Virus record (IMG/VR): IMGVR_UViG_3300009168_000013
Span: 1 to 56,124 of that record
Reading direction: 5' to 3' (one strand)
Source: a virus
Lineage: Duplodnaviria; Caudoviricetes
Length of the DNA stretch: 56,124 nt
In this document: positions 1-56,124 of the stretch, one piece after another
Numbering within the stretch: position 1 is the stretch's first letter
Layout of the letters: every line of letters begins with the position of its first letter
Notes under the pieces: model-generated
What the model was told of the DNA's origin: nothing
The model's input: only the letters and a program-made list of their open reading frames with translations
Databases searched by the model: none
Translations under genes and position numbers: made by a program

Positions 1-123
1 GCGTCGTGCTCTACGTGGACGACCCGGGTGAGACGCCCCGGGACAACCAGGGCTACCCGCTCGCGCAGGCTGCTCCGGCGCCGACCGCCACGCCGCCTCC
101 CCCGGCCCAGCCTCGCCACGCCC
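1..123. repeat. Terminal overlap identical to 56002-56124 (circular assembly; unit length 56,001 bp)
   Basis: The first 123 nt match the last 123 nt exactly, and the MuF reading frame continues across the join. Confidence 0.97.
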
Positions 124-1004
124 CCAAGGCCGACCGTCCGTTGGGGCCTCCGGCGCCCCGCTCCACGTTCACGCCCACCACCTCCGCTCCGGCTCCCCCG
201 CCGAAGCCGCCCCCGCCCAAGGCGCCTCCTCCCGGCGCCTCGTTCAACACCGCTGGCTTCCACGTCGGGCGCATCTCCCACAAGAACCCCTGGGAGTTGA
301 CCGACGCCGCCAAGGTCGAGATGGACGGGCTCATGCGGGCCGTGCAGGACGACCTCGTCCGCATGTACGACACCCACCTGCGCCCGGTCGGCCTGCGGAC
401 CGACGGCCTCCAGTTCACCCACCACGGCGCCAACAACGTCGAGTGGCATGCGCGCATCGTCGACGCCGACGGCGAGTTCGTCGGCCACTTCGACCGGGGC
501 CTGTACCTCAACAACGACAACCGCTGGGAGGTCCACCACAACCTCTGGAGCCTCGAAGCCGAGGTGCAGGGTCAGGGCCTCGCCACCAAGATCAACGACG
601 CCGCCTTCGACCTCTACCGGGCCTGGGGAGTCGACGAGGTCACCCTCCTCGCCAACATCGACGTCGGCGGCTACGCCTGGGCGAAGCAGGGCTTCGCCTG
701 GGACCGCAGCGCCCACTCGGAGGTCATCACCATGTTCGGCCGGGTGGAGCGCCGCCTCGACGAGTACTTCGACACGTACCTGCCCGAGACGCTGGAGGCC
801 GCCCGGGCCGACCTCGCCGTGCTGCGGCAGCGGGCTCGGGACTTCGACCCCTCCCACCCCTCGTTCCCCTCGCCGTTCGACATCTCGCGCATCGGCTACC
901 GGGACGAGATCGCCGCCCTCCACCCCGCCAAGAAGGGGTACCGCTGGGTCGGCAAAGACGCCATGCTCGGCTCGACGTGGTACGGCGTGCTCCCCCTCGC
1001 CTGA
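1..1004 (+). CDS. C-terminal extension of the MuF protein: Pro-rich linker plus GNAT-like domain
   Basis: In frame with the 55263 ORF across the overlap; acetyl-CoA-binding-like motif VQGQGLAT followed by ANIDVGGYAWAKQGF. Confidence 0.75.
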   Translation, partial: VVLYVDDPGETPRDNQGYPLAQAAPAPTATPPPPAQPRHAPKADRPLGPPAPRSTFTPTTSAPAPPPKPPPPKAPPPGASFNTAGFHVGRISHKNPWELTDAAKVEMDGLMRAVQDDLVRMYDTHLRPVGLRTDGLQFTHHGANNVEWHARIVDADGEFVGHFDRGLYLNNDNRWEVHHNLWSLEAEVQGQGLATKINDAAFDLYRAWGVDEVTLLANIDVGGYAWAKQGFAWDRSAHSEVITMFGRVERRLDEYFDTYLPETLEAARADLAVLRQRARDFDPSHPSFPSPFDISRIGYRDEIAALHPAKKGYRWVGKDAMLGSTWYGVLPLA

Positions 1005-1018
1005 CCTATCCTGGCCCG

Positions 1019-1261
1019 GTGCCCAAGTCGAAGCCCGCCAAGCCCACCGCCGTCGAGGTGGCCGAGGGCCGTCGTCGTCAGGCCGCCCTCTACCGGCTGC
1101 ACTCCGCCTGGACCGCCAAGCACGCCGATGCGACGGCCGTGCCCTCCCGCCCCGGCTCCGAGGACGTCTCCGTCCACCACCTCGACCTGGAGCCCTCCGT
1201 CGAGGCGGAGCGTGAGTTCCAGGCGGCGGCAGCCGCCCTGTACCCCTGGCCGCCCTCGTGA
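1019..1261 (+). CDS. Small protein (80 aa) directly after MuF; candidate partner/immunity protein
   Basis: GTG 1019 lies 6 nt after a TATCCT -10-like box (1007-1012), i.e. leaderless. Confidence 0.65.
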   Translation: MPKSKPAKPTAVEVAEGRRRQAALYRLHSAWTAKHADATAVPSRPGSEDVSVHHLDLEPSVEAEREFQAAAAALYPWPPS

Positions 1262-1293
1262 CGTAGGCTCGCCCCCGAACCCAGGGAGGTCAC

Positions 1294-3260: not shown

Positions 3261-3269
3261 GAGCGCCTC

Positions 3270-3458
3270 GTGGCCTGCGGCTGCATGAAGAAGAACACGC
3301 CCGGGGCCTCGCAGCGCCTCGTGGCTTCCGCTCCTCCCCCGGCCCGGGTCGGGCCGTGGAAGGTCACCTACACCAACGGCTCCACCGAGACGTTCCCCAC
3401 GCTGCTCCCGGCCCAGCGGGCCGTGCGCCGTCGTGGCGGGCGCATCGACGCCGCCTGA
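3270..3458 (+). CDS. Small head-module protein (MACGC-type)
   Basis: ORF between protease and capsid with an N-terminal CGC. Confidence 0.7.
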   Translation: MACGCMKKNTPGASQRLVASAPPPARVGPWKVTYTNGSTETFPTLLPAQRAVRRRGGRIDAA

Positions 3459-3557
3459 CGTCTCGCGTTACGCTCCACCCCGCCTGGCCCGTAGTGGCTC
3501 GGCCCCCAGCCCGTAGCGGCCTCTCGTTCCCCACCGCTCGCCCACTGGAGGGCCGCC

Positions 3558-23742: not shown

Positions 23743-24003
23743 GTGGACCTGATCGTGCTCTGCTCCTGGTGCTCCGCCCCGGCGACCCGGGTGGAGGGCT
23801 CTGCGGCTCTCTGCGGGCCGTCGTGCCCCGCCCGGCCACTCCCGCCGCCCCCGGTCGACCTGGCTGCCGTGGCGGGCCTCCTGGGCCGCTCTCCGGCGCC
23901 CTGCACCTCCTGCGGGGCCGTCCACTTCCTCCCGCCCCGGCAGACGACGGGCCGCCGCTGCCTGCTCACCCCCGGCTGCGACGGCTGGCACCGTGTCCGC
24001 TGA
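23743..24003 (+). CDS. Cys-rich Zn-binding protein
   Basis: SD GGAGG; several CxxC pairs. Confidence 0.55.
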   Translation: MDLIVLCSWCSAPATRVEGSAALCGPSCPARPLPPPPVDLAAVAGLLGRSPAPCTSCGAVHFLPPRQTTGRRCLLTPGCDGWHRVR

Positions 24004-25012
24004 GCGCCTCGCCGGGACGCTGACCGGCTGGGAGGCCCTCGCCCGGGCCGTCACCCCGGTCCACGTCCTCGGCGGCCACCCCGTCAAGCGTGACGACCTG
24101 TTCGCCCCGCTCGGCGTCGGCTCGATCAACGGCTCGAAGTTGCGCCAGTTGCTCTACCTCGTCGGCCATGCTGCGCGCAACGGGGCGGACGGGATCGTGA
24201 CGGCGGCCTCGGTCCTCTCGCCGCAGGTCCCGATGACCGCTGCTGTCGCCGCCCACTTCGGCCTCCCCTGCCACATCATCCTCGGCGGGACGGTGCTGGA
24301 GCGGGCTCGCCGCAACCCGGGAGTCGCCCTGGCGGAGTCGTTCGGCGCCACCTTCGGCTTCACCTCGGTCGGCTACAACCCGGCGCTCCAGGCGGCCTGC
24401 CGACGGGCTCTCGACGAGCGCCCGGGCTGGTCGAGGGTCCCTTACGCGATCAGCCTGCCCGAGCGGGGCGACATCGGCGACATCGAGGCACTCGGCGACA
24501 TCGGCGACTTCCACCGGCTAGGCGCGCAACAGGTGGCGAACCTGGGCGACGTCCGCACGCTCTACGTCCCCTTCGGCTCCGGCAACTCTGCGGCCTCGAT
24601 CCTCTACGGCCTCGCCCTCGCCCCCGAGACGGCCGTGGAGAAGGTCGTCCTGGTCGGTGTGGGTCCGTCTCGCCTCGACTGGCTGGCACGGCGCCTGGGG
24701 ACGCTGAGCGCCCTCTCCGGGGCCGACGTGGAGGGCTGGCTCGCCCGGGTCGAGCATCACGACCTGCACGGCCTCGGCCTCGTCGCCTACCACGACCGCC
24801 GGGTCGCCTCCCTGGGCGGCCTGCGCCTGCACCCGACCTACGAGGGCAAGGTGCTCTGGTGGCTCCGCAAGCACGCCGACCCGGCCTCGCCGTGGCACCG
24901 TGACCCCCGGGGCTCCGGCCTCTGGGTCGTCGGCTCGGAGCCTGTTGCGCCCCGCCAGCCCGCCGTGCGAAAGTCGACGGGCCGCCCCCGCAGGGACGGC
25001 CCAACCGACTGA
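23993..25012 (+). CDS. PLP-dependent enzyme (fold type II), of the class seen in phage thymidine hypermodification
   Basis: VKRDDLFAPLG.GSINGSKLRQL (PLP lysine), PFGSGNS and LHPTYEGK motifs. Confidence 0.82.
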   Translation: MSAERLAGTLTGWEALARAVTPVHVLGGHPVKRDDLFAPLGVGSINGSKLRQLLYLVGHAARNGADGIVTAASVLSPQVPMTAAVAAHFGLPCHIILGGTVLERARRNPGVALAESFGATFGFTSVGYNPALQAACRRALDERPGWSRVPYAISLPERGDIGDIEALGDIGDFHRLGAQQVANLGDVRTLYVPFGSGNSAASILYGLALAPETAVEKVVLVGVGPSRLDWLARRLGTLSALSGADVEGWLARVEHHDLHGLGLVAYHDRRVASLGGLRLHPTYEGKVLWWLRKHADPASPWHRDPRGSGLWVVGSEPVAPRQPAVRKSTGRPRRDGPTD

Positions 25013-30043: not shown

Positions 30044-30286
30044 GTGCGCTGGGCCGAGGTGCGCGAGGTCGTCCTCGAACGGGACGGCGGCTGTCGGGCT
30101 CGCCTCCTCGCCCCCGGCCGGTGCTCCGGCCACGCCGAGGTGCATCACCTCCGCCGCCGCTCCCAGGGCCGTGACGACTCGCCCGACAACCTCATCGCCC
30201 TCTGCTCCGCCCACCACCGCTGGGTCACCGAGCACCCGCAGGCTGCTCACGACCTCGGCCTCGCCCGCTGGTCGTGGGAGAGGTAG
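30044..30286 (+). CDS. HNH endonuclease
   Basis: VLERDGGC..EVHH..RS.G..NLIALCSAHH. Confidence 0.85.
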   Translation: MRWAEVREVVLERDGGCRARLLAPGRCSGHAEVHHLRRRSQGRDDSPDNLIALCSAHHRWVTEHPQAAHDLGLARWSWER

Positions 30287-31021: not shown

Positions 31022-31156
31022 ATGACCGGCATCGTCCCCGACGAAGGGACCTGCGACGGCTGCGGCAAGTGGCTCTCCAGCGACGACGGCTACGTCGTTA
31101 TCGAGGACGGTGTGCGCTACCGCTTCTGCGACGAATGCCCGGAGGACGACGCATGA
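31022..31156 (+). CDS. Small Zn-ribbon protein (44 aa)
   Basis: CDGC...CDEC; ATGA overlap with the methyltransferase. Confidence 0.55.
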   Translation: MTGIVPDEGTCDGCGKWLSSDDGYVVIEDGVRYRFCDECPEDDA

Positions 31157-32124
31157 GGCCCCTGTTCCCCTACTTCGGCTCCAAGGGACGTGCCGCTGCC
31201 CTCGTCTGGGAAGCCCTGGGCGACCCCGACCTGTACCTGGAGCCCTTCGCCGGGTCGCTCGCCGTGCTCCTCGCCCGGCCCTCCGTCCCCCGGGTGGAGG
31301 TCGCCGTCGACACCGACGGGCTCATCGTCAACTTCTACCGCACGCTCCGCTCCGACCCGGGTGCCCTCCTCGACGCCGTGCCGCTCCCGGTCGCCGAGGT
31401 CGACGTCTGGGCCGCGCAAGTGAGGCTGATCGAGCGGGCCGAGGGCCTCACCGAGCACCTGCGGACGTCGCCCTACTACTTCAACGCACCGCTGGCGGGC
31501 CTCTGGTGGTACGGCGTCTCCTCGTGGCTGGGCTCGGGCTTCCCTGGTCGGCGCCCGGCCCGGCAGCGTCCCCACATCGACCGCTCTCTCAAAGGACTCC
31601 ACGCCCGGGGCATGCACGACGACCGGGTGCTCTCCGTCGCCGCCCGCCTCGCCAACGTCGTGCTCCTCGCCGACGACTGGCAGGAGGGCTGGCTGCGCGT
31701 GTTCGGCGGGGCTCGCAACCCTGACTCGGTCATCGACCGCTGGGCCAAGCACGATCCTCCGGGCTCGGTCGGCGTGTTCCTCGACCCGCCCTACGCCCGG
31801 GTCACGGCGGGCTCGGCCCGCTCCGGCGGCCTGTACCGCCGGGAGTGGGACGCCGACATGACGGCCCGGCTGCGCGCATGGTGCGTCGACCACACCGAGA
31901 TGCCGCACGTCTCGGTCGTGCTCGCCGGGTACGACGACGAGTACGAACTGCCCGGGTGGAACGGCGTGGAGTGGCACGCCCCCAACGGCTACGCCCAGGA
32001 GGGCAACGCCCGTCGCCACCGTGAGGTGCTCCTGATGAACCCGGCGGCCTGGCGCCGCTTCGAGGGCACCCACCTCGCCCCCGGCGTCCACCCCAACCAG
32101 ATGCACCTGGAGCCGCTGTCGTGA
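31153..32124 (+). CDS. DNA amino-methyltransferase (Dam/D12-like)
   Basis: PYFGSK, YLEPFAGS (SAM binding) and FLDPPY (catalytic) motifs. Confidence 0.88.
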   Translation: MRPLFPYFGSKGRAAALVWEALGDPDLYLEPFAGSLAVLLARPSVPRVEVAVDTDGLIVNFYRTLRSDPGALLDAVPLPVAEVDVWAAQVRLIERAEGLTEHLRTSPYYFNAPLAGLWWYGVSSWLGSGFPGRRPARQRPHIDRSLKGLHARGMHDDRVLSVAARLANVVLLADDWQEGWLRVFGGARNPDSVIDRWAKHDPPGSVGVFLDPPYARVTAGSARSGGLYRREWDADMTARLRAWCVDHTEMPHVSVVLAGYDDEYELPGWNGVEWHAPNGYAQEGNARRHREVLLMNPAAWRRFEGTHLAPGVHPNQMHLEPLS

Positions 32125-32507: not shown

Positions 32508-32750
32508 GTGACCGACACGCCCCCGGTCGACGACGACTTCGGCGACTTCACCGACGACGACGCTGTCGACTCCGCCCCGCCCGACGCTGAGGCCCTCGCC
32601 CGCCGCTTCTACGCAGAGCGCCACCGCCTCGCCCCCGACCCGACCCGGGCCGCCTCCCTCGACGACCTCCACCCGTTCGAGCGCGCACTGGTCGTCTACG
32701 TGTTCGCCGTGCTGATCGTGCGGCTCGCCCGGGAGTGGCGGCCCACCTGA
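32508..32750 (+). CDS. Hypothetical protein (leaderless)
   Basis: TAAGGT 6 nt before GTG. Confidence 0.6.
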   Translation: MTDTPPVDDDFGDFTDDDAVDSAPPDAEALARRFYAERHRLAPDPTRAASLDDLHPFERALVVYVFAVLIVRLAREWRPT

Positions 32751-33127
32751 TGGGCGCCATCTGTCGGGAATACATGGGCTACCGGGACCCCAAGGGCTAC
32801 GGGCAGCGAGCCCGGGGCCGCTGGGGCACCGGCCAGGTCCACCGGCAGGTGTGGATCATGGCCTTCGGCCCGATCCCGCCCGGCCTCGTCGTCATGCACA
32901 CCTGCGACAACCCGCCCTGCTTCCTCCTGGCCCACCTTCGTCTCGGGACGACGACCGAGAACCAGGCCGACATGGCCGCCAAGGGACGGGGCAGGCCCCG
33001 GCTCCTGCCCGACGACGACCCCTGCTCCGAGTGCGGCCTGCCCCGCTCCCGCCGTCCCGACGGGCGGCTCCGCTGTCTCCCCTGCCACGCTCGAAGGAGG
33101 GCCGAATCATTGGCGCCATCTGGCTAG
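32750..33127 (+). CDS. Free-standing HNH homing endonuclease
   Basis: GYG..HR..W..GPIP.GL.VMHTCDNPPC...HLRLGT..EN..DM. Confidence 0.88.
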   Translation: MGAICREYMGYRDPKGYGQRARGRWGTGQVHRQVWIMAFGPIPPGLVVMHTCDNPPCFLLAHLRLGTTTENQADMAAKGRGRPRLLPDDDPCSECGLPRSRRPDGRLRCLPCHARRRAESLAPSG

Positions 33128-34029: not shown

Positions 34030-34078
34030 GGCAGCCATGCCAGGTGGCGATCCGCCGCTCAGCGGCTATGCTGAGCCC

Positions 34079-34375
34079 ATGCCTACCGCAACCCTCTCCA
34101 CGCCCACCCGGCGGCGCAACCCTCGTGGTCAGCCGCTCACGCCCGAGGCCCGCTCCCTCCTCGTCGACCTGACCCAGACGCAGCACCGCATCAACGAAGG
34201 TGCGCGCATGGTCGCCGAAGGTACGGAGGCCCGGCGCCGCCTGCTCTGGGACCTCTACCACGAGCGGGGCATCAGCCAGACCGACCTCGCCGAGTGGCTC
34301 TCCGCCGCCGGGGAGCCCATCGGCCCCGACCTCGTGCAGAAGGCGCTCCGGGCCGTGCGGGAGACGGGCCTGTAG
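34079..34375 (+). CDS. HTH-like DNA-binding protein
   Basis: GISQTDLAEWL..VQKAL; leaderless after TATGCT; heads the modification operon. Confidence 0.6.
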   Translation: MPTATLSTPTRRRNPRGQPLTPEARSLLVDLTQTQHRINEGARMVAEGTEARRRLLWDLYHERGISQTDLAEWLSAAGEPIGPDLVQKALRAVRETGL

Positions 34376-34379: not shown

Positions 34380-35000
34380 ATGGCTGTCCTGGCTCAGACC
34401 TACGAGCCTGCCTGCCCCATCGACTCCCTCTCCGAGCACCCCGCCAACCCCCGGGTCGGCGACATGGAGGCCCTCGGCGAGTCGATCCGGGTCAACGGCT
34501 TCTACGGGGCCGTCGTGGCGCAGGTGTCCACCCGCCACGTCCTGGCGGGCAACCACCGCCTCCGCAAGGACGCCGAGCAGGGCGCCACCACGATCCCGGT
34601 GCTCTGGGTCGACGTGGACGACGACCTGGCCCTCCGCATCCTCGTCGGCGACAACCGCTTCCCGGCCCTCGCCGGGTACGACGACTCCGGGCTGGCCCGG
34701 CTCCTCGGCTCGCTCCTCGGCGTGCCCGCCGGGCTCCTCGGCACCGGCTACTCGGCCGACGCTGCGGACCTCCTGCTGCGCCTCCTGGCCGAGGGGGACT
34801 CGCATGGTGCTGTCGCCCCGGGGCTGACGCCGGGGGAGCGAGAGGAAGCCTGGGCGGCCTCTGCGATGCAATCCCTGGTGCTGCCCTACCCGCCCGCCGA
34901 CCACGACGCCGTCGCCTCCGCCATCGACGCCGCCGGGCACCCTGCGGAATCACGCTCGGACACGGTGCTGCGCCTCCTCCGGGCGGCCACCAGTGCGTGA
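34380..35000 (+). CDS. ParB/Srx N-terminal domain protein 1
   Basis: HPANPR.GD, SI..NGF, VLAGNHRL and DNR motifs. Confidence 0.82.
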   Translation: MAVLAQTYEPACPIDSLSEHPANPRVGDMEALGESIRVNGFYGAVVAQVSTRHVLAGNHRLRKDAEQGATTIPVLWVDVDDDLALRILVGDNRFPALAGYDDSGLARLLGSLLGVPAGLLGTGYSADAADLLLRLLAEGDSHGAVAPGLTPGEREEAWAASAMQSLVLPYPPADHDAVASAIDAAGHPAESRSDTVLRLLRAATSA

Positions 35001-35844
35001 GGTCGCCCTGTACCGCTGCCCGGTCAACGTCGCCCCTCGCTCGCAGGCCGACCCCCCGGGGCCAGGTGCTGTCGTGCTCGACGGCGACGTGCTCCTGCGG
35101 GACGCCGACTCCGGGGCCGCCGTCGCCCTCCAGGCTGTCGCCGCCCGAGGCCCCGCCACCATCATCGCCTCGCTGCTGCGCCACCTGGCCTGGGCGGAGC
35201 GCGCACCCCGGTACGGGGCCGTGGCGACGGGGGAGTCTCGCCTCTCGGGCATCGCCGTCTCCAACAGCGTGTTCGGCGCTCTCCCGCCGGTGCCGCTGCG
35301 CCGCCGGTACGGCTGCTGCCGGGCCGCCCTCGACACCGACCGGCCCGACCTCGTCTCCCACCTCTCCCATGTCGCCGTGCTCTCCGCCGCCCTCGCCGCC
35401 GACGTCCTCCCCGACGAGTTCGCCGCCTGGGCCGCCGCCGTGGAGGCCCGGGTCCCTGCGGCCTGGCGCATGGCCGACACCCTCTGGACCTCCGGCGTCA
35501 TCAACAACAACTCTGCCCACCCCTACCACCGGGACGCCTCCAACGTCCGGGGCTCCTGGTCGGCGATGCTCTCGATGAAGGCGCACCTGGAGGGCGGCTG
35601 GCTCCACCTGCCCGACTACGGCTGCTACCTCGCCGTGCCCGACGGCGCCCTCACCCTGTTCGACGGCGGGCTCCTCCTCCACGGCGTCACGCCCTTCCGG
35701 CTCACCAAGCCCTCCGGGTACCGCTTCACCGTCGTCTACTACGCCCGGGCCGGGCTCTCCGCCTGCGCGCAAGACCCGGCGGAGGAGCCTGCGAGAGCCG
35801 CGAGAGTCGCCTACGAGGCCGCACGAGCCCGGGTCCAGCCATGA
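34993..35844 (+). CDS. TET/JBP-family 2OG-Fe(II) dioxygenase
   Basis: WTSGVIN, YHRD (HxD), GG.L.LP, LHGVTP (distal H) and RFTVVYY (2OG Arg). Confidence 0.85.
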   Translation: MREVALYRCPVNVAPRSQADPPGPGAVVLDGDVLLRDADSGAAVALQAVAARGPATIIASLLRHLAWAERAPRYGAVATGESRLSGIAVSNSVFGALPPVPLRRRYGCCRAALDTDRPDLVSHLSHVAVLSAALAADVLPDEFAAWAAAVEARVPAAWRMADTLWTSGVINNNSAHPYHRDASNVRGSWSAMLSMKAHLEGGWLHLPDYGCYLAVPDGALTLFDGGLLLHGVTPFRLTKPSGYRFTVVYYARAGLSACAQDPAEEPARAARVAYEAARARVQP

Positions 35845-36419
35845 TCGAGCGCCAGACGTTCCACGCCGACTACCCGCTCGCAGACCTCGTGCCCCACCCG
35901 GACAACCCTCGCCGGGGCGACGTGCTCTCCCTGGCGGAGGCCATCGAGGCCCTCGGCTTCTACGGGGCGATCTACCTCCACGGCGACTCCTCCGTCGTGC
36001 TGGCGGGCTGGCACCGGGTCCTGGCCCTCCACGCCACCGGCGTCACCGCCGCCCCGGTCATCCGCCTCTACTGCTCCGACGCCACCGCCCTCCGGGTGAT
36101 GCTGGCCGACAACCGCATCGGCGACCTCGGCCATGAGGACCCGCTGCTCCTCGGCGACGCCCTGGCCGCCCTGGCCGCCTCGCCGCTGGGCCTGGCGGGC
36201 ACCGGGTACACGGAGGACGACCTGGCCGACCTGATGGCCGCCGCCGAGGCCGCCTCGCCCTGGGGCTCCTCGGTCGCTCAGGGCGGCGAGTCACGCTCCC
36301 TGGTGCTCCTGTACGACGCCGCCGGGCTGCGCGAGGTCGTCGGCCACATCGACGCTCTCTGCTCCCGCTGGGGCCTCGACTCGGCTGCTGCTGTCGTGCG
36401 CCGCCTCGTGCTCTCGTGA
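35841..36419 (+). CDS. ParB/Srx N-terminal domain protein 2
   Basis: HPDNPRRGD, VLAGWHR and LADNR; paralog of 34380. Confidence 0.82.
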   Translation: MIERQTFHADYPLADLVPHPDNPRRGDVLSLAEAIEALGFYGAIYLHGDSSVVLAGWHRVLALHATGVTAAPVIRLYCSDATALRVMLADNRIGDLGHEDPLLLGDALAALAASPLGLAGTGYTEDDLADLMAAAEAASPWGSSVAQGGESRSLVLLYDAAGLREVVGHIDALCSRWGLDSAAAVVRRLVLS

Positions 36420-36967
36420 GGGGAGCCCTGTACGTCATCGGCCCTCCCGGCTCCGGCAAGTCTCTCGGCCTCGTGACGGCTCTCGGCCTCGCCGGGCTCC
36501 TGCCCCAGACCTCCGCCGATCAGCCCTTCGCCATGACGCTGCACAACTCCCTCGACGGCACCCGGCCCACCTGGGTCCTGGGCCGCCCTGGTGGCCCCTT
36601 CTCCGGCACCGACGCTCTCGCCATGAACGTCGCCCCTCGTGTCAGAGAGTGGCTCCTGGGGGCCTCTCCGGCGGCCGTGGCGGCTGAGGGCGACCGCCTC
36701 GCCAACCCGGTCACCCTCGACGCCCTCTGGCACGCCTTCCCGACGGGCCGCCTCGCCGTGCTCGACCTCCCGCCCGCCCTCTCCTGGGACCGCATGGTGC
36801 GCCGGGCCGAAGCCCTGGGCCGCCCGCCGCAGAGCGAATCCTGGTGGAAGGGGAGGGTCACCAAGACCCTGAACCTGGCTGCGCGCTACGCCGACATCGC
36901 CGTCCGGGTCGACGCCACCGGCTCGCCCGACGACGTCGCCGAGGCCCTCGTGCCGCTCCTCCCGTAG
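36416..36967 (+). CDS. P-loop kinase of base-modification clusters (candidate 5-hmU DNA kinase)
   Basis: Walker A GPPGSGKS; FSGTDAL, EGDRL and W.KGR.TK motifs; gene context. Confidence 0.75.
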   Translation: MRGALYVIGPPGSGKSLGLVTALGLAGLLPQTSADQPFAMTLHNSLDGTRPTWVLGRPGGPFSGTDALAMNVAPRVREWLLGASPAAVAAEGDRLANPVTLDALWHAFPTGRLAVLDLPPALSWDRMVRRAEALGRPPQSESWWKGRVTKTLNLAARYADIAVRVDATGSPDDVAEALVPLLP

Positions 36968-38070
36968 TGGACCTCTCCGGCGTCGACCTGCGCGCAACGG
37001 CCTACCGCCGGGAGACGTTCCTCCGCTCCTGGGAGTTCACCCTCACCTACGGCACCCACCCGGGCTGCGTCTACCTGGCCTGGCCCACCCTCACCCGGCT
37101 CCTCTCCTGGTCGCCGGAGGAGGCCCTCTGGTACGCCTTCATCAACGGCAACACCCAGCACCCCGCCACCTCCCTCGTGCTCTGGCACGCTGCCCCGCTG
37201 CCCCGCCACGCCGACCGCCTGGTCGACGCCTGGCGCTCCCTGTACGGCTCCCTGGCCTTCGACACCGACCGCCGGTACCACCGCAAGGCGCTCCCCGCCG
37301 CCGTGCTGTCGTACCTCGGCCTCATCGGCGGCGGAAGCCAGGAGGCCTTCTGGCGGGCTCGGGCTGGGGAGGGCTGGGCCTCGTGCTGGGCCTCGGCCCG
37401 CTCCGTCGCCACCTTCGGCCGCCTCTCGGCCTGGTCGTACCTGGAGTACGTCCGGCTCTGCGGCATCGCCCTCGACGCCGACTCGCTCATGCTCACCGAC
37501 CGTGACGGCTCCCGCTCGCACCGCAACGGCCTGGCCATCGTCGAGGGCTCCGACGACCTGGACTGGCACGCCTCCAACCTCGGCTACCGTGGCTACCAGG
37601 CGGCGGACCTGGAGCGTCTGGCGGACCTGGGGGAGGGCCTGCTGGCCGACATGCACCTGCGCGCAGCGGGGCAGCCCTGGGCCGCCGACGTCTCCCGGCT
37701 CACGCTGGAGTCGGCCCTCTGCACGTACAAGGGATGGCACCGCCCCGACCGGCGCTACCCCAACGTCTACGCCGACATGATGCACGACCGCCTGGTCGCC
37801 GCCGAGGCCGCCCATCCGACGGTCGACTTCTCCCCTCTCTGGGCCGCCCGGGCCGCCGTGCTGCCCGCCACGCTGCGGCTGGAAGATTCCCCCGGGGACC
37901 CGGGGCTGGGGCCTCTCAAGCAGAACTTCTACCGGCTCTCCGGGCGGCAGCACACCCTCGGCCTCCGCTGGCCCGATATGCTGTCTGACCTGGACGGACG
38001 CCTCGCCGACGGCTCGCTCGGGACCTTCCGCTCTCCCCGGGACATAGGCCGTTCGGCTCATCTCGCGTAG
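36967..38070 (+). CDS. aGPT-Pplase2 / amino acid:DNA transferase family protein
   Basis: DTDRRY, FGRLSAWSYLEY, SRSHRNGL and ESALCTYK..RRYPNVY motifs. Confidence 0.78.
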   Translation: MDLSGVDLRATAYRRETFLRSWEFTLTYGTHPGCVYLAWPTLTRLLSWSPEEALWYAFINGNTQHPATSLVLWHAAPLPRHADRLVDAWRSLYGSLAFDTDRRYHRKALPAAVLSYLGLIGGGSQEAFWRARAGEGWASCWASARSVATFGRLSAWSYLEYVRLCGIALDADSLMLTDRDGSRSHRNGLAIVEGSDDLDWHASNLGYRGYQAADLERLADLGEGLLADMHLRAAGQPWAADVSRLTLESALCTYKGWHRPDRRYPNVYADMMHDRLVAAEAAHPTVDFSPLWAARAAVLPATLRLEDSPGDPGLGPLKQNFYRLSGRQHTLGLRWPDMLSDLDGRLADGSLGTFRSPRDIGRSAHLA

Positions 38071-38124
38071 AATCTTCGCGCAGAGGTTGTGTTCCCGCCG
38101 GGCGGCGGCTAATCTACCTACATG
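38046..38124 (+). promoter_or_regulatory. Conserved promoter repeat, copy 3
   Basis: GCCGTTCGGC 38048-57; TTGTGT 38087-92; 17 bp; TAATCT 38110-15; ATG 38122. Confidence 0.85.
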
Positions 38125-39162
38125 ACCGTTCAACTCACCTCCGCTCGGGCCTTCGGCGTCGAGATCGAGTGCCACTCCCGGCTGTCGTTCGACACCCTCG
38201 CCCGTACCCTCTCGGCTGCCACCGGCCTCCAGTTTGAAGTTCAGGGCTGGTCGCAGCACACCACCGCTGCCCGGGGCCACAACCGGGGCACCTGGAAGAT
38301 CGTCCCCGACGGCTCGCTGAGCCACACCACCGGCAAGGAGGTCGTCTCCCCGGTGCTGTCGGGCGACGAGGGTGCCCGCCAGGTCACCGCCGTCCTGACC
38401 GCCCTTCGGGACGCCGGGGCGACCGTCGACCGGGCCTGCGGCATGCACGTCCACCACGACGCCAACGACATCACGGTCGACGGCATGGTGCGGCTGGTCG
38501 AGGGCTTCGCCGCCCGCCAGGTCAGCCTCATGGACCGCTTCGTCTCCCCGAGCCGCCGCAACGGCCGCTGGGCCTCACGGCTCTCCGGGGCCGAGGTCCG
38601 CACGGCGACCAACGCCCTCTCCAACGGCTACGCCGCTGCCCAGCGTGGCACCTGCGGAGTGGACCGCTACCGGGCACTCAACCTCCTCGCCTACGCCTCC
38701 TACGGCACGGTGGAGTTCCGCCAGCACCAGGGGACGCTGAACGCCTCCAAGGTGCTCGCCTGGGTCGCCCTCGGCCAGGCCATCGTCGAGGCCGCCATCG
38801 ACGGGACGCTCCCGGGGATGCAGACCTCGATCGAGTTCCTCAACGAGGCTGTCGGCTCCGGGCTCATGCACGGCTCGGCCGCCCGCTCGCTCACCCGCCG
38901 GGCCGCCGCCTTCGGCTTCGACGCTCCGGCCATCACGGCTCGCTCCTCGATGAGCCGCGCAGCGCAGGGTCGCCGCACCCGGGTCGCCAACGTCTCGGAG
39001 GAGACGGATGCCGAGGCCTTCCACCTCCGCTCGGCGGGGCGCACCTGGCGTCAGGTCGCCGAGGCACTCGGGCTCGCCCGGGAGTCGTCGGCCCGCACGG
39101 CCGCCGGTCGCCACTCGGCCCGCATCGGCGCCTCGGTCGGGTACGTCCCGACCGGGGCCTGA
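38122..39162 (+). CDS. Putative amidoligase (COOH-NH2 ligase) with C-terminal HTH
   Basis: FGVEIE, W.IV.DGS, E.VSPVL, CGMHVH, RY..LN and TVEFRQH.GT; tail RTWRQVAEALG. Confidence 0.85.
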   Translation: MTVQLTSARAFGVEIECHSRLSFDTLARTLSAATGLQFEVQGWSQHTTAARGHNRGTWKIVPDGSLSHTTGKEVVSPVLSGDEGARQVTAVLTALRDAGATVDRACGMHVHHDANDITVDGMVRLVEGFAARQVSLMDRFVSPSRRNGRWASRLSGAEVRTATNALSNGYAAAQRGTCGVDRYRALNLLAYASYGTVEFRQHQGTLNASKVLAWVALGQAIVEAAIDGTLPGMQTSIEFLNEAVGSGLMHGSAARSLTRRAAAFGFDAPAITARSSMSRAAQGRRTRVANVSEETDAEAFHLRSAGRTWRQVAEALGLARESSARTAAGRHSARIGASVGYVPTGA

Positions 39163-39168: not shown

Positions 39169-39256
39169 AGGAATCTCCGCCGCCAGGTTGTGTTCCCGCC
39201 TGGCGGCGGCTAGTCTACCCCTACCACCACGACGTCTCGAAAGGACTCCGCCAGTG
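39169..39256 (+). promoter_or_regulatory. Conserved promoter repeat, copy 4 (no upstream box; leadered)
   Basis: GGAATCT; TTGTGT 39188-93; 17 bp; TAGTCT 39211-16; SD AAAGGA. Confidence 0.8.
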
Positions 39257-40195
39257 TGCGGCATCGCAGGTTTCTCACGCAGGGGCTCCGGCTCCACCTT
39301 CCCCGCCGGGGATCTATCCCTGGCCCTCGCCCTCGCCATCGAGGCCCGAGGCCCCCACGCCACCGGCTACGGCTGGATCGACGAGGCCTCCGCCTGGCCC
39401 TACTTCTGGAAGGAGCAGGGGCGGGCCTCCCTGGTCGCCGACCTCTGCGCCGTCACCCGGGACCCCGAGGTGCGGACGCTCATCGCTCACACCCGGTACG
39501 CCACCCAGGGCTCGCCCTCGGTCGCCGCCAACAACCACCCGGTCGTCGCTCCCGGCATCGTCCTGGTGCACAACGGCGTCGTCACCAACGACGACGCCCT
39601 GTTCCGCACCCTCGGCGTGGAGCGCATGGCGGAGGTCGACTCCGAGGTCATCGCCGCCCTGCTGTCGTACTCGGGCATGGACCCCTGGCTCGCCCTCGCC
39701 GAGTTGCGCGGACGGGCCGCTGTCGCCTGGCTCGACGCCGACTCGCCCGACACGCTGCACCTCGCCCGGGTCACCGACTCGCCCCTCCACTACGCCCACA
39801 CCAAGGGCGGAGCGTTCATCTTCGCCTCCACGGCCAAGGCCATCAACGACGCCGCCGGGCTGGCCCAGGTTCGCCTGGTGGGCCGGGTGCGCTCGGTGGA
39901 CGAGGGCACCTACCTCCGGGTCGTGCGGGGCGACATCACCGTCGTCCGCCGCATCGCCATCACCCGCACCGCCACGACCGGGCCTCGGCTCGACCAGGGC
40001 GCCGCCCCCGCCAAGAAGAAGGGCAAGAAGGGACGCCACGCCAACCAGGGCCGCCTGCTCTCCGTCGCCCCCGACCCGGCGACCTGGGACTGGACGGACG
40101 GCCGGGGCATCACCGACCGCTTCGCCCGCCCGGCGACCGCCACCCAGCCGCCGGAGCCCTACTGGGCCTGGCGCAACCGGGACGAGGGCAAGTGA
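39254..40195 (+). CDS. Class II (Ntn) glutamine amidotransferase
   Basis: N-terminal MCGIAG; RG.HATG, HTRYATQG, NNHP, HNG and VDSE motifs. Confidence 0.9.
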   Translation: MCGIAGFSRRGSGSTFPAGDLSLALALAIEARGPHATGYGWIDEASAWPYFWKEQGRASLVADLCAVTRDPEVRTLIAHTRYATQGSPSVAANNHPVVAPGIVLVHNGVVTNDDALFRTLGVERMAEVDSEVIAALLSYSGMDPWLALAELRGRAAVAWLDADSPDTLHLARVTDSPLHYAHTKGGAFIFASTAKAINDAAGLAQVRLVGRVRSVDEGTYLRVVRGDITVVRRIAITRTATTGPRLDQGAAPAKKKGKKGRHANQGRLLSVAPDPATWDWTDGRGITDRFARPATATQPPEPYWAWRNRDEGK

Positions 40196-41652: not shown

Positions 41653-41769
41653 ATGGACATCTACGACCGCATCTGCCCCGAGTGCCTGGGCGACGTATTC
41701 GACACCTTCGGCCTCACCGGCCACGGCTGCGATTGCACGCCCGAGGTGGACGAGGAGGAGGACGCATGA
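41653..41769 (+). CDS. Small acidic Cys-containing protein (38 aa)
   Basis: CPEC..CDC; ATGA overlap with GGCT. Confidence 0.5.
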   Translation: MDIYDRICPECLGDVFDTFGLTGHGCDCTPEVDEEEDA

Positions 41770-42296
41770 GCGACCTCGACCCCTTCGGCCCCGCCCTCAC
41801 CTCGCTGGAGGAGGAGGGCTGGGGCGAGTGCGCCACCTGCGGCTCGCTCACCCAGGCGGAGGGCTCCGTCTGCGCCGTCTGCCTGGCGCTGGCCTTCGCC
41901 CCCGCTCCCCCGGCCGACGACGCCGTGTTCGTCTACGGCACGCTCCGCCCGGGCTGCGGCAACGACCGCCTCTGGCAGGGCACCGGGACGACCGCGCACC
42001 TCGCCGTCGCCACCGGCATCCGCCTCCACGGCCTCGGCCGGGCCTTCCCCTACGCCGTCGAGGCCACCGAGGACGTCACCTTCGGCACGCTCCTCATCTT
42101 CCCCGAGGCCGAGCGCGCAGCCCTGCTGCAACGCTTCGACTGGCTGGAGGGCACGCCCCACCACTACGTCCGGCAGACTGTCCGGGTCGCCACCTTCGAC
42201 GGCCACCGCTCGGCCTGGGTCTACCTGGCCGCCGACGAGGCCCGGGCCACGGCCCTCCCGCCGGTGCCCGGCAACGACTGGACGAACGTCCGGTAG
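41766..42296 (+). CDS. Gamma-glutamylcyclotransferase (AIG2-like) with N-terminal Zn ribbon
   Basis: FVYGTLRPG, FD.LEG...Y.R and AWVY motifs. Confidence 0.85.
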   Translation: MSDLDPFGPALTSLEEEGWGECATCGSLTQAEGSVCAVCLALAFAPAPPADDAVFVYGTLRPGCGNDRLWQGTGTTAHLAVATGIRLHGLGRAFPYAVEATEDVTFGTLLIFPEAERAALLQRFDWLEGTPHHYVRQTVRVATFDGHRSAWVYLAADEARATALPPVPGNDWTNVR

Positions 42297-50670: not shown

Positions 50671-51315
50671 ATGCCCACGAACAAGACCAAGAAGGTGCTG
50701 GCCGCTCTGGCCCTCGCCACCACTCTGACCGGGACGGCGGCGACCTTCGCCCCCTCGGCTGGCGCCCAGGCGGCCTGCTCCGTCGACCACCGGCTGCGCC
50801 TCGGCCAGCGAGGCTCCAGTGACGTCCGCTGCCTCCAGATCGCCCTGGAGGCCGCAGGCGTCAACCCGGGGCCGGTCGACGGCTACTTCGGCCCGGTCAC
50901 CCGGGCCGCTGTCGTCGCCTACCAGACGGCCAAGGGACTCACGGTCGACGGCTGGGTCGGCCCGCAGACCGCCGGGTCGCTCGGCATCTGGTGGGCGCCC
51001 ACCTCCCGCTCGGCCTCGGCCCCCGCCCCCCGGGCTCCCCGGACCTCGGCGCCTCGCCCTGCTCCGGCGACCAACAGCGGAGTCGACTGGGACCGCCTCG
51101 CGCAATGCGAGTCGGGCGGCAACTGGAGCATCAACACCGGCAACGGCTACTACGGCGGCCTCCAGTTCCTCGCCTCGACCTGGCGGGCCTACGGCGGCAC
51201 CGGCCTCCCCCACCAGCACTCCCGGGAGACGCAGATCGCCATTGCCGAGCGTGTTCGGGCCGACGTCGGGATGCGGGCCTGGCCCGGGTGCTCCCGCAAG
51301 TTCGGCTGGATCTAG
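50671..51315 (+). CDS. rpf: Secreted resuscitation-promoting factor (Rpf) transglycosylase with peptidoglycan-binding domain
   Basis: Signal peptide; DGYFGP.T..AV..YQ...GL.VDG.VGP; [30 protein letters not shown]. Confidence 0.9.
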
Positions 51316-52020: not shown

Positions 52021-52033
52021 GTTCGCCCCCATC

Positions 52034-52270: not shown

Positions 52271-52276
52271 CCGCCC

Positions 52277-52380: not shown

Positions 52381-53130
<750 letters not shown>

Positions 53131-53177
53131 GGCTGCTCCCTGGGCACGGCCTCCCCTCGGAGACTACCCTCGGCCTC

Positions 53178-53498
53178 GTGGACGGCTTCCTGCTCCTGGT
53201 CGCCTTCGTGCTGGCGGCCTACCGCCTCAGCCGCCTGGTGACGACCGATCGCATCACGATGGGGCCTCGGCACGCCATCATCCACAAGGCCAAGGAGGAC
53301 GACCCCGACCCCCTCCTCGCCACCTTCGTCACCTGCGACTGGTGCGTCTCCGTCTACACCTCGGCTCTCGTGGTCGGCCTCTCGTGGCTGTTCATCGACC
53401 CCGGGCTCGACCTGCCCTTCCTCTGGTGGGCGGCCACGGCTGGCGGGGCGGGCATCACCGCCTCCGTCGTCGACCGGATCGAGGGGATGGACGACTGA
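53178..53498 (+). CDS. DUF1360-like membrane protein
   Basis: R..RLVT.D.I and C.WC.SVY motifs; precedes the portal. Confidence 0.75.
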   Translation: MDGFLLLVAFVLAAYRLSRLVTTDRITMGPRHAIIHKAKEDDPDPLLATFVTCDWCVSVYTSALVVGLSWLFIDPGLDLPFLWWAATAGGAGITASVVDRIEGMDD

Positions 53499-55279
53499 TG
53501 GCCGCCGGGGATCGCCGCCGCCCTCGTGGCGTCAACTCAGCCCTGACGGCCTCGGCCCAGATCGTCAGCGGGATGCGCCTGCCCTCCTCGTTCCTGGCGG
53601 AGGACTGGCAGGCGGAGGCCTGGGCCTTCTACGACTCGATGGGCGAACTGCGCTTCGCCTCGAACTGGATGGGCAACGCCTGCTCTCGCGCACTCCTCGT
53701 CCCCTCGCTGATCCCCGCCACCCCGGGCGACGACCCCGAGCCCGACGAATCCGCCATCGGCCAGCAAGCCCTCGCCATGCTGGGCGGCGGGGCCGCCGGG
53801 CAGGCCCAGGTGCTCCTCGACATCGCCATCCACCTGTTCGTGGCTGGCGCCTCGTACCTCGTCGGCGAGCCCGCCGAGGACGACCCGGAGGGGGAGGGGC
53901 CTCTCGTCTCGTGGAACGTCTACAGCACCGACGACATCGCCTCGGCCGGGGCTGACGCCTTCCGGGTGCGGGACGAGTCGACGCCGGGCGGCTACCGGGG
54001 CCTCTCCCCGGCCGCTCTCGTCGTCCGCATCTGGCGGCCCCATCCCCGCTGGCGCTGGCAGGCCGACGCCCCGACCCGGGCTGCTCTGCCCGCCCTGCGC
54101 GAGGTGGCGCTCCTTTCGGGCCGGGTGCGGGCCGAGGCTCTCTCCCGGCTCGCCGGGGCTGGCGTGTTCGTCGTCCCCTCCGAGGCTTCCCTGCCCCCGG
54201 CCCGGGACCCGGTCACCGGGGCCGAGGTGCACCGGGACCTCCTCGACGTGCTGGTCGAGTCGATGACCGTGCCCATCGGCGACCCGGAGTCGGCCTCCGC
54301 CGTCGTGCCGCTGCTGCTGCGCGTACCCGGGGCTCTGGCCGAGGCCGTCCGCCACGTCTCGTTCGCCACGCCCTTCGACGAGCGCATCATCGAACTGCGG
54401 GACTCGGCGATCCGTCGCGTAGCCACGGCGCTCGACATGCCCGCCGAGGTGCTCCTCGGCCTGGGCGAGTCGAACCACTGGTCGGCGTGGCAGATCGAGG
54501 AGGCCGCCGTCACGATCCATGTGGAGCCCACCCTCGACCTCATGTGCTACGGGCTCACGGTCGGCTTCTACCGCCCGGTGCTCGAAGCCCTCGGCCTGGC
54601 CGACGTCGAGGGCCGGATGCTCTGGTACGACTCCTCGGCGCTGCGCCTCCGGCCCGACCGCTCCGAGGACGCCGTCTCCGCCTACGACCGGCTCCTCATC
54701 GGCACCGAAGCGACCCGGCGGGAGGTCGGCTTCGACGAGACGGACGCCCCCGAGCAGGCCGAGTTCCTGCGGATGCTCGGCGTCAAGTTGGCCCTCCTCG
54801 ACCCGGCCAACGCTCCCTCGTACCTCCGCATGGGCGGCATCGACGTCGGCCCCATCGCTGTCGCCCCCGCCCCGGCTGCGCCTCCGGCGCTCCCGGCCGC
54901 CCCGGAGGCTCCGGCCCCTCCCGGTCCTCCGGCTGGCGGCCCTGCCCAACCGGCGCCTGCGCCGCTGCCCGCCGGGGAGGCCGCTGTCGAGGCCGGGCTG
55001 GTCGCCGCCTGCGACGCCCTCGTGCTCCGGGCTCTGGAGCGGGCTGAGGCTCGGTCGCGCACGCTGGAGAAGGCGGGACGGGCCTGCTCCCTCGACGACC
55101 TCCTGCACTCGGCGTGGGACCGGGTGCCGGAGGTCGCTCTCCGGTACGGCTGCGACCCGGCGCCGCTGCTCACCGCCCTCGACGCCTACACCCGGGGCCT
55201 GCTCATCTACGACAAGCCCTACGCCTACGCCGACCTGGCCCTGGCCCTGGGGGCCTACGTCGATGCCCTCCCGGGCTGA
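53498..55279 (+). CDS. Portal protein
   Basis: WQ.EAW..YD..GEL, RIWRPHP, SRLAGAG, LD.P.E.LLG...NHWSAW and WYD.S.L..RP motifs. Confidence 0.9.
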   Translation: MAAGDRRRPRGVNSALTASAQIVSGMRLPSSFLAEDWQAEAWAFYDSMGELRFASNWMGNACSRALLVPSLIPATPGDDPEPDESAIGQQALAMLGGGAAGQAQVLLDIAIHLFVAGASYLVGEPAEDDPEGEGPLVSWNVYSTDDIASAGADAFRVRDESTPGGYRGLSPAALVVRIWRPHPRWRWQADAPTRAALPALREVALLSGRVRAEALSRLAGAGVFVVPSEASLPPARDPVTGAEVHRDLLDVLVESMTVPIGDPESASAVVPLLLRVPGALAEAVRHVSFATPFDERIIELRDSAIRRVATALDMPAEVLLGLGESNHWSAWQIEEAAVTIHVEPTLDLMCYGLTVGFYRPVLEALGLADVEGRMLWYDSSALRLRPDRSEDAVSAYDRLLIGTEATRREVGFDETDAPEQAEFLRMLGVKLALLDPANAPSYLRMGGIDVGPIAVAPAPAAPPALPAAPEAPAPPGPPAGGPAQPAPAPLPAGEAAVEAGLVAACDALVLRALERAEARSRTLEKAGRACSLDDLLHSAWDRVPEVALRYGCDPAPLLTALDAYTRGLLIYDKPYAYADLALALGAYVDALPG

Positions 55280-56124
55280 GTTCGTCGACGAGTACGAGGC
55301 CGCCCTCGACGCCTTCACCTCCGAGTTCCTCGCCGTGTTCATGCGGGGCATGCGGAAGGTGCTGGCGCCCGCTGTCGTCTCCGCCGCCACCCAGACGTTC
55401 GTGGCCTCCGCCGTGGAGGAGCCCTGGGAGGAGTTCGTCTCCGCCAACCTCAACCCGCTCCTCGTCGCCGACTACGGGGCGGCGGGGCTCTCGGCCTGGG
55501 TCGGCCGGGGCCAGGACCTCGCCTACGCGCAGGCCGACCATGCCGCCGGTGCCCTCGTCCGCACGCACGCCTCCTCCGCTGTCCGCCACGCCGCCGCCGC
55601 CCAGAACCGGATGGTGCGCTTCTCCGACTCCCTCTGGCTCCACGCCCGGGGCCAGATCGCCGAGGGCATCGCCTCCGGCAAGACCATCGAGGAGATGAAG
55701 AACGTCCTGTGGAGGGACTTCGGCCCGGCTGGCGTCTACGAGCAGCGGGCCGAGGTCGTCGCCCGCACCGAGGTTCACGCCGCCGTCAACGCTGGCCACG
55801 AGGAGGGGATGGCGCTCCTCGGCGCCCACGGCCCCAAGTTCAAGGAGTGGCTCTCCACCTCCGACGGCCGCACCCGCCCGACGCACGCCGCCGCTGACGG
55901 TCAGGCCGTCCCCCGGGACTCGCACTTCGTCGTCGGCGGGGCTCGCCTCCGCTTCCCCGGCGACCCGTCCGGCCCGGCGGAGGAGGTCATCCAGTGCCGC
56001 TGCGTCGTGCTCTACGTGGACGACCCGGGTGAGACGCCCCGGGACAACCAGGGCTACCCGCTCGCGCAGGCTGCTCCGGCGCCGACCGCCACGCCGCCTC
56101 CCCCGGCCCAGCCTCGCCACGCCC
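55263..56124 (+). CDS. MuF-like (SPP1 gp7-type) minor head protein, N-terminal part; continues through the join to 1004 (580 aa total)
   Basis: ATG 55263 overlaps the portal end; MuF motifs ARTEVH, KEWLSTSDGRTRPTH, FPGDP, IQCRC. Confidence 0.88.
   Translation, partial: MPSRAEFVDEYEAALDAFTSEFLAVFMRGMRKVLAPAVVSAATQTFVASAVEEPWEEFVSANLNPLLVADYGAAGLSAWVGRGQDLAYAQADHAAGALVRTHASSAVRHAAAAQNRMVRFSDSLWLHARGQIAEGIASGKTIEEMKNVLWRDFGPAGVYEQRAEVVARTEVHAAVNAGHEEGMALLGAHGPKFKEWLSTSDGRTRPTHAAADGQAVPRDSHFVVGGARLRFPGDPSGPAEEVIQCRCVVLYVDDPGETPRDNQGYPLAQAAPAPTATPPPPAQPRHA
56002..56124. repeat. Terminal overlap identical to 1-123
   Basis: Exact duplicate of the window start. Confidence 0.97.

Follow-up and report, generated by a model that had tools for sequence, protein, structure and literature searches.

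Thymine-flanked CGCG sites form an evenly spaced array in a phage genome otherwise purged of CGCG

The viral genome IMGVR_UViG_3300009168_000013, a complete IMG/VR record of 56,124 bp (the window: the whole stretch of DNA analysed here), carries only about one hundred copies of the tetranucleotide CGCG, and every one of them has a thymine one or two bases 5′ of it on one strand. These copies form an array that runs through the entire genome at strikingly regular intervals, with the octameric palindrome TGCGCGCA as the most favoured form of the site, and the density, flanking context and evenness of the array persist in relatives from other samples. The data require negative selection on CGCG together with positive selection for a regularly spaced, thymine-flanked subset, which suggests that CGCG is both harmful to this virus and needed by it. 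The terminal 123 bp of the record duplicate its initial 123 bp, and counts below refer to the unique length of 56,001 bp unless stated otherwise.

Depletion of CGCG and the flanking thymine rule

The window holds 105 copies of CGCG, 104 of them in the unique sequence, against 986 copies expected from base composition. The deficit persists against a maximal-order Markov model (575 expected) and against 200 synonymous-codon shuffles, which preserve every protein and the codon usage of each gene and give 516.1 ± 14.8 copies (range 477–569); CGCG is thus under-represented relative to a codon-aware null, as in restriction avoidance. The hexamer CGCGCG is absent, with 34 copies expected. Ninety-five of the 104 sites lie within CGCGCA (76) or TGCGCG (51), 32 of them in both, and the remaining nine are all TCGCG or CGCGA (positions 1314, 3464, 12805, 19990, 24445, 33810, 35799, 38064 and 54416). 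The sites fall in all three reading frames (38, 24 and 34), with eight intergenic. By strand, 76 are on the + strand, as CGCGCA, and 51 on the − strand (44 versus 19 for non-palindromic sites), without a switch along the genome; strict polarity of strand would be the mark of a strand-specific priming or Chi-type motif.

Much of this had been anticipated in a sequence-only reading of the same DNA, which estimated 90–100 CGCG sites against about 1,000 predicted by base composition, placed about 90% of them in TGCGCG/CGCGCA, and stated that a thymine lies one or two bases 5′ of every site; these estimates are borne out, the last of them at 104 of 104 sites. Its list of exceptions was right in that all eight entries are TCGCG or CGCGA, and incomplete in that the ninth, at 54416, was overlooked. 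The even spacing, the building of sites by selection and the conservation in relatives described below go beyond that reading.

The flank rule was resolved further by classing each site according to the two bases 5′ of the core on each strand and comparing observed counts with the mean of 300 shuffles:

No 5′ thymine (S/S, S/W, W/W, S/T2, T2/W, T2/T2): observed 0, expected about 305 of about 516
T at −1 only: observed 3, expected 124
T at −1 on both sides: observed 1, expected 11
T at −1 and T at −2: observed 5, expected 22
TG on one side, G/C on the other: observed 9, expected 19
TG and A/T in the wrong orientation: observed 18, expected 12
TG and T at −1: observed 27, expected 14
TG and T at −2: observed 9, expected 3.5
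TG on both sides: observed 32, expected 3.0

A 5′ adenine never suffices alone (0 sites against about 143 expected in classes S/W and W/W), and a 3′ thymine is likewise insufficient. The rule is therefore graded and oriented: what counts is a thymine on the 5′ side of the core, no other flank comes near TG, and two thymine-bearing flanks are better than one. Depletion that ignored the flanks and left a few random survivors is not what is found, as all sites are thymine-flanked, CGCGCA exceeds expectation 2.9-fold and the coefficient of variation (CV) of the gaps between sites is 0.55.

The palindrome TGCGCGCA and selection that builds sites

The palindrome TGCGCGCA occurs 32 times against 2.9 ± 0.9 copies in the shuffles, an 11-fold excess that agrees, coordinates included, with the earlier estimate of about 30 copies, in various reading frames, against a handful. 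The reversed control ACGCGCGT has no copy in the genome, and the second most enriched 8-bp palindrome stands only 3.8-fold above expectation. The copies are located as follows:

449..456: first copy of TGCGCGCA
Further starts: 1997, 2995, 4387, 8407, 8970, 11400, 13791, 14411, 14892, 20637, 22458
Further starts: 24172, 31871, 33729, 34201, 35764, 36989, 37658, 40737, 42370, 43200
Further starts: 43782, 45688, 46077, 46591, 47211, 48122, 48972, 49573, 50549, 52076

The half-site context is enriched as well. CGCGCA is present 76 times against 26.4 ± 4.3 in the shuffles (2.9-fold), a null that already includes codon usage inflated by the motif itself. Alanine is least often written as GCA (68 of 2,487 codons), and 24 of these 68 come directly after CGC. 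Among 146 Arg-Ala pairs, CGC is used in 24, every one of them as CGC-GCA, and the rest use CGG, CGT, CGA or AGR. GCG accounts for 43 of the 132 alanine codons that precede Gln or His and for 332 of the 2,354 others, and a codon beginning with G follows CGC in 38 of 649 cases and CGG in 306 of 478. Thymine-flanked CGCG sites are thus built by positive selection that recruits rare codons. A general dimer-spacing signal of the form TG-N4-CA was considered and rejected: the N4 excess (84 versus 62) consists wholly of the 32 copies with a CGCG core.

Even spacing of the array

The array of 104 CGCG sites spans positions 1..56001 with a mean gap of 538 bp. The gap CV is 0.554 against 0.985 ± 0.093 for random placement, a value that none of 20,000 simulations reached; no gap exceeds 1,294 bp, where random placement would lead one to expect a maximum of 2,806 bp, and the gap histogram has its maximum at 500–600 bp. 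Among 564 strand-merged 4–7-mers with 60–200 sites, CGCG has the lowest CV, the next being 0.72 and the median 1.00. Nor is the evenness a property of where codons would permit the motif: CGCGCA or TGCGCG is synonymously possible at 559 positions, and the 87 at which it is realised have a CV of 0.562 against 1.069 ± 0.117 for random draws (0 of 20,000).

Taken alone, the 76 CGCGCA sites of the + strand are evenly placed, with a CV of 0.556 where random thinning gives 0.685 ± 0.066 (P = 0.012). The remaining 28 sites lie in the spaces that these leave, bringing the CV to 0.554 against 0.695 ± 0.041 when 28 random points are added instead (P = 0.0003). Four of the nine TCGCG/CGCGA exceptions lie 350–750 bp away from the nearest core site. 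Evenness is a property of all CGCG sites together, exceptions included.

Conservation of the array in relatives

Scans of viral contigs and metagenomes yielded seven contigs of the same lineage from other samples (L005–L009, L090 and L120), which overlap one another in part; the five that were aligned are 82–90% identical to the window in nucleotide sequence. In L005–L009 the ratio of observed to expected CGCG is 0.10–0.12 and AGCT is absent. Thymine-flanked CGCG sites make up 20/20, 8/8, 8/8, 15/17, 24/25, 5/5 and 5/5 of the total in the seven contigs, and in the three longest the gaps are again even, with CVs of 0.55 in L005 (P = 0.006), 0.42 in L008 (P = 0.0004) and 0.46 in L009 (P = 0.0002).

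Individual sites are labile. Roughly a third have turned over between relatives, and CGCGCA is conserved at 22 of 32 positions against a background of 54% (P = 0.065). Sites gained in relatives are nearly all CGCGCA, and several lie near one that was lost (5641→5658, 886→804, 33218→33258 and 55526→55746). The density, context and evenness of the array are conserved, and its positions are not. The differences at sites are G↔C transversions, not C→T; four public sequencing runs contain related contigs about 90% alike, with differences that are mostly C↔G. The intergenic exception tCGCGtt (3464..3467, between genes ending at 3458 and starting at 3558) is kept in L008 (at 6598) and L009 (at 11538) as ccCGCGtt, which violates the thymine rule there, and this conserved CGCG may belong to a separate element.

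Beyond this lineage, the next relatives by portal protein are at most 41–45% identical. The pattern is absent from 75 such more distant portal relatives (L010–L087 minus five close ones) and from 142 further loci, among which the lowest CGCG ratio is 0.30 and none has a flank bias.

Wider avoidance of restriction-type sites

CGCG is not the only short palindrome to be lost. AGCT is absent (73 expected), and of 32 testable six-base palindromes (expectation at least 4), 15 are absent and five more stand at or below 0.17 of expectation, making 20 of 32. The absent ones are ACCGGT, ACGCGT, CAGCTG, CCATGG, CCGCGG, CGCGCG, CTCGAG, CTGCAG, GAGCTC, GCCGGC, GGATCC, GGGCCC, TCCGGA, TGATCA and TGCGCA; expected counts reach 128 for GCCGGC, 65 for CCGCGG, 48 for GGGCCC, 39 for CTCGAG and 23 for GAGCTC. 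The breadth of this avoidance is extreme, and the roughly 100 retained CGCG sites stand out against it.

Two observations concern AGCT. GAGTTG is 11-fold enriched (26 versus 2.3; for example at 294, 3057, 6212, 12029 and 29096) as Glu-Leu written GAG-TTG with the rare TTG codon; since GAG-CTN would create AGCT, this enrichment is a by-product of AGCT avoidance and no independent signal. AGCT is also absent from several distant relatives, themselves high-GC phages, namely L010, L013, L017, L026, L027, L032, L040 and L089, and from Microbacterium phage Terij, so that its avoidance recurs among these actinophage-like genomes.

Predicted genes for thymine modification

The genome encodes a cluster of genes with matches to known steps of thymine modification, together with candidate accessory enzymes:

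34380..35000, + strand: ParB-like protein, paralog 1 (weak ParB_N match, E = 0.0014, below the Pfam cut-off)
34993..35844, + strand: TET/JBP-type dioxygenase (Tet_JBP, E = 1e-13)
35841..36419, + strand: ParB-like protein, paralog 2 (38% identical to paralog 1, E = 1e-20; no Pfam match of its own)
36416..36967, + strand: P-loop nucleotide kinase 3, 5-hmU DNA kinase family (E = 5.8e-17)
36967..38070, + strand: amino acid:DNA transferase (ADDT / aGPT-Pplase2, E = 4.9e-14)
38122–39162, + strand: Amidoligase_2 (Pfam match)
39254–40195, + strand: class-II glutamine amidotransferase (GATase; Pfam match)
41766–42296: gamma-glutamyl cyclotransferase
23993..25012, + strand: pyridoxal phosphate (PLP)-dependent enzyme (PALP, E = 1.1e-9)

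The dioxygenase is predicted to be a ParB-dependent thymine dioxygenase of the 5mYOX clade C1 type, because its homologs adjoin ParB-like genes in cultured actinophages, namely Arthrobacter phage Bolt007, Microbacterium phage Terij and Rhodococcus phage Tonitrus, the last of which additionally has the kinase and the transferase. It is present in all three relatives that cover its region (L005–L007). The amidoligase and the glutamine amidotransferase are likely to perform tailoring steps of the base modification; together with the gamma-glutamyl cyclotransferase, their location downstream of the transferase suggests glutamyl- or peptide-type tailoring of the modified base. Possibly, the PLP-dependent enzyme acts at a late step of the pathway. 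According to O'Toole et al. (PNAS 2026, PMC13229309), ParB-dependent phage thymine dioxygenases are linked to kinase, amino acid:DNA transferase and GATase genes, all of which occur here beside the ParB-like and TET/JBP genes. Two ParB paralogs flank the dioxygenase in the present genome, and Bolt007, Terij and Tonitrus have one ParB each. A small HTH protein is encoded just before the cluster, at 34037–34375.

Two opposing forces and the masking proposal

We propose, tentatively and at a little under an even chance for the reading as a whole, that two opposing selective forces act on CGCG and that the thymine context masks the sites that remain. CGCG, a Type II recognition site (BstUI, FnuDII, BepI), is strongly selected against, most likely by a host nuclease that cuts it; a nuclease is invoked because AGCT and at least 15 six-base palindromes are likewise missing from the genome. 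About one CGCG per 540 bp is retained by positive selection as an evenly spaced array, which implies a cis-acting site that some protein must find within about 1 kb anywhere on the genome. Retention would be confined to places where the thymine of a T-purine step lies just 5′ of the core, ideally on both strands, with TGCGCGCA as the optimum. Finally, the retained sites may carry bulky modified thymines that mask them, a step put forward because the one ParB-dependent phage thymine dioxygenase that has been tested biochemically prefers this thymine context and because the pathway is encoded here. Sites about 0.5 kb apart would be well matched to a protein that moves only a little way along the DNA after loading, or to one that forms bridges from site to site; loops in DNA form most readily over approximately such a distance.

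The main support for masking is the apparent match between the tolerated flanks and the published enzyme preference. In the substrate data of O'Toole et al. (PMC13229309), 5mYOX176 with its ParB prefers NTG and then NTA, and a ParB-independent enzyme prefers NTC. A thymine at −1 of CGCG necessarily lies in a TC step, which would account for its being a poor flank, and the excess of TG over TA follows the same published order. That flanking modified TG might protect GC-only sites is raised in the relevant passage of Flodman et al. 2019 (PMC6449724). The sequence-only reading had inferred that a host defence is evaded only where a neighbouring base is modified, either the thymine or the A/C target of the phage methyltransferase: the purge, the oriented thymine rule, the pathway genes and the TG over TA match accord with the thymine form of that idea, and it leaves the enrichment and the even spacing unexplained.

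Several results weigh against masking, either alone or within the two-force proposal. Masking by itself predicts neutral counts of thymine-flanked sites and cannot explain their enrichment, the recruitment of rare codons or the even spacing. Palindromes that contain TG/CA are still avoided (CTGCAG, CAGCTG, CACGTG, GTGCAC, TGATCA), and the GC-only sites GCCGGC, GGGCCC and CCGCGG have no TG-flanked survivors, although about 9% of neutral sites would be TG-flanked. The sequence preference of the dioxygenase is assumed here by extrapolation from one characterised enzyme, 5mYOX176, and the protein is only 31–38% identical to the cultured-phage homologs found. Bolt007, Terij and Tonitrus show no TG-flank enrichment at depleted GC-only sites, and neither Bolt007 nor Terij has an evenly spaced k-mer (lowest CVs 0.70–0.76). 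Two distinct sites in the relatives depart from the thymine rule: ggCGCGgt, found in L008, and ccCGCGtt, shared by L008 and L009. CGCG sites are conserved at 29 of 45 positions (64%) against 63% for all 4-mers and TGCGCGCA at 11 of 15 against a 47% background (P = 0.035), so that single sites are little above background.

The main rival explanation dispenses with modification. The thymines would merely be part of a recognition sequence, TGCGCGCA with half-site TGCG, bound by a dimeric protein of phage or host origin, for instance one that acts in replication or packaging, bridges sites or is Chi-like; the array would be the minimum that the phage needs, and other CGCG would be removed either as restricted or because the reader would be titrated or led astray by weak sites. 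The graded preference for the second half-site resembles a binding-energy landscape (observed over expected 32/3.0, 9/3.5, 27/14, 18/12 and 9/19 for TG opposite TG, T at −2, T at −1, misoriented A/T and G/C), and the core is required, as the TG-N4-CA counts show. Such a protein would also account for the lack of TG-flanked survivors at other GC-only sites and for the other thymine-dioxygenase phages without the pattern, and even spacing with turnover and nearby replacement fits a cis site selected for density. However, the 32 palindromes by themselves are uneven (CV 0.93), and evenness includes the TCGCG/CGCGA exceptions that fill gaps; a scan of 53 proteins revealed neither a reader nor any primase, helicase or polymerase; and about 100 unmasked sites would remain lethal if CGCG is restricted. 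On balance we regard this explanation as unlikely, though it carries appreciable weight.

A reading that joins the array to the modification machinery is that thymine-flanked CGCG sites act as parS-like points of entry for a ParB–thymine-dioxygenase assembly, TGCGCGCA being the optimal form. A dimeric ParB/5mYOX complex would engage both thymines of the palindrome and close on the DNA, then slide or bridge over a few hundred base pairs while installing hypermodified thymines, so that entry would be needed every 0.5 kb or so; the core would also be a restriction target, and sites would exist only in the form that the machinery masks first. We give this reading a small chance; if true, the loading of a post-replicative DNA modification system could be read off the genome like a map.

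Other enzymes that could act at CGCG

Three further genes bear on who might cut or protect CGCG:

31153..32124, + strand: distant D12-class (Dam-family) N6-adenine methyltransferase (DPPY motif at residue 211)
30044..30286, + strand: small HNH endonuclease
32750–33123: second HNH open reading frame (HNH_3)

The phage methyltransferase could mask the sites instead of a thymine modification, by placing N6-methyladenine at CGCG(C)A on the adenine opposite the flanking thymine; the flank rule can equally be expressed as an adenine one or two bases 3′ of the core. A site-specific enzyme has one register, whereas the tolerated adenine stands at +1 or +2 and after C, T or G, and the TG>TA>TC ranking matches the published dioxygenase preference. 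The family assignment itself is weak (Pfam 24 bits against a cut-off of 22; NCBIfam 26.6 bits against 114.85), with sub-threshold Dam-family matches and no relative of solved structure found in the PDB. Masking by this enzyme has, in our judgement, only a slim chance.

The nuclease directed against CGCG could also be the phage's own, a host-DNA-degrading enzyme or an HNH protein, with its targets cleared from the phage genome and the rest masked. Two HNH genes are present, and a host of 73% GC would carry CGCG about every 60 bp (an estimate from base composition), making it an efficient target for takeover. Such a nuclease explains neither the retention of any site nor the even spacing, and small phage HNH proteins adjoining lysis or packaging genes are usually not so site-specific; we consider this origin very improbable.

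Host search and a HIP1-like origin

HIP1 (GCGATCGC) is an octameric palindrome that occurs in cyanobacteria roughly once per 1–2 kb. The sequence-only reading had offered a HIP1-like process inherited from the host as an alternative: methyltransferase-linked biased repair in the host would make the palindrome, and the phage would mirror host composition. The many-fold excess of TGCGCGCA is of the HIP1 kind, as is its density of about one per 1.75 kb, and a phage with no obvious replication genes would be copied and repaired by host enzymes.

In 406 Actinomycetota genomes (5 + 401), a sample that need not include the host, the density of TGCGCGCA reaches at most 199 per 1.7 Mb, or one per 8.5 kb, against one per 1.75 kb in the phage. 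Fifteen of the 401 genomes are unpublished, and they contribute to the statement that none nears the phage density. Samples of the six in which the ratio of TGCGCGCA to control was highest had 47–61% GC and CGCG in excess, and these genomes were rejected as host-like. The only methyltransferase seen in the phage that might act on the palindrome is the distant D12-class enzyme. This alternative finds no support here: besides the 0 of 406 genomes, none of the 142 other loci shows the pattern, relatives differ by G↔C transversions and not C→T, no Vsr-like gene occurs among the proteins scanned, and a repair drive yields neither even spacing nor removal of unrelated CGCG. Of the explanations weighed here we hold it to be the least probable.

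A candidate lysin gave a further route to the host:

50671–51315: Rpf-like transglycosylase carrying a peptidoglycan-binding domain; its gene lies between those for terminase and portal

A scan of genome contigs with this Rpf-like gene returned Nocardioides, Propionibacteriaceae, Pseudonocardia, Arthrobacter and others with similar scores, singling out no host. Its catalytic domain is 70–76% identical to the Rpf domains of many Actinomycetota.

Comparison with known systems

The array resembles HIP1 in being an octameric palindrome with a methylase- or restriction-type core, found in all frames at a similar density. It differs in that HIP1 belongs to cellular genomes, whereas the present motif is seen in one phage lineage only and in none of the 406 actinobacterial genomes searched; here the core is purged elsewhere in the genome, and the even set is all CGCG, not the palindromes. 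With restriction-site avoidance it shares the near-total loss of short palindromes through synonymous codons (AGCT, GCCGGC, GGGCCC, CTCGAG and CCGCGG all at zero) and the recruitment of rare codons, as in the 26 GAG-TTG pairs that sidestep GAG-CTN. Ordinary avoidance leaves few, randomly placed survivors, whereas the loss of CGCG here depends on the flanks, and some 100 sites survive at regular intervals, with an excess over expectation in one context.

DNA uptake sequences, Chi and the GATC sites used by MutH are evenly spaced cis-motifs kept by selection on density. Like them, the present sites are written through genes in all frames with over-regular spacing, and they turn over while density stays; unlike them, they are spaced far more closely (0.54 kb), occur in both orientations and as a palindrome, and have a core that is otherwise forbidden. 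In literature on the octamer TGCGCGCA, on highly iterated palindromes in phages and on restriction avoidance with even spacing in actinophages, the pattern was not found.

The closest likeness in gene content is to the ParB-dependent thymine dioxygenase clusters, whose published NTG>NTA order matches the flanks tolerated here (PMC13229309). The portions available of PMC13229309 and PMC6449724 describe no genomic footprint of modification; the three cultured phages with the module lack one, and the present genome differs from them also in its two ParB paralogs. Post-replicative thymine hypermodification by such enzymes was described only in 2025–26, and PMC13229309 leaves open the reason for sequence selectivity, the role of ParB and the choice between defence and an "epigenetic-like" function. 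The present genome offers a sequence-level handle on those questions, as CGCG is forbidden unless beside a thymine of the kind the enzyme prefers and is yet kept every 0.5 kb or so. If the thymines are modified, the genome would hold a footprint of a base-modification system readable from sequence alone and a simple test bed, in which about 104 BstUI-type sites would be protected in native DNA and cleaved after amplification. Whatever the mechanism, it is a clear case of an evenly spaced, density-conserved, position-labile array of cis-motifs in a phage genome.

Genome and setting

The virus is uncultured and appears actinophage-like, an assignment made because the protein relatives of the dioxygenase sit in Mycobacterium, Microbacterium, Arthrobacter, Gordonia and Rhodococcus phages and because the weak nucleotide matches of the window are to Gordonia phages only. 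The public sequencing run that covers it best is a freshwater sediment metagenome. The genome has a GC content of 72.9%, and our own codon-bias gene caller, whose calls are approximate, places about 92 genes on it, all on the + strand except one doubtful call. Cytosine outnumbers guanine along the whole of the coding (+) strand (C 40.8%, G 32.1%), and the GC skew stays between −0.08 and −0.15 in all 4-kb bins. On the same strand, GTCC stands at half of expectation (207 versus 418), and GGAC is mildly reduced (352 versus 429).

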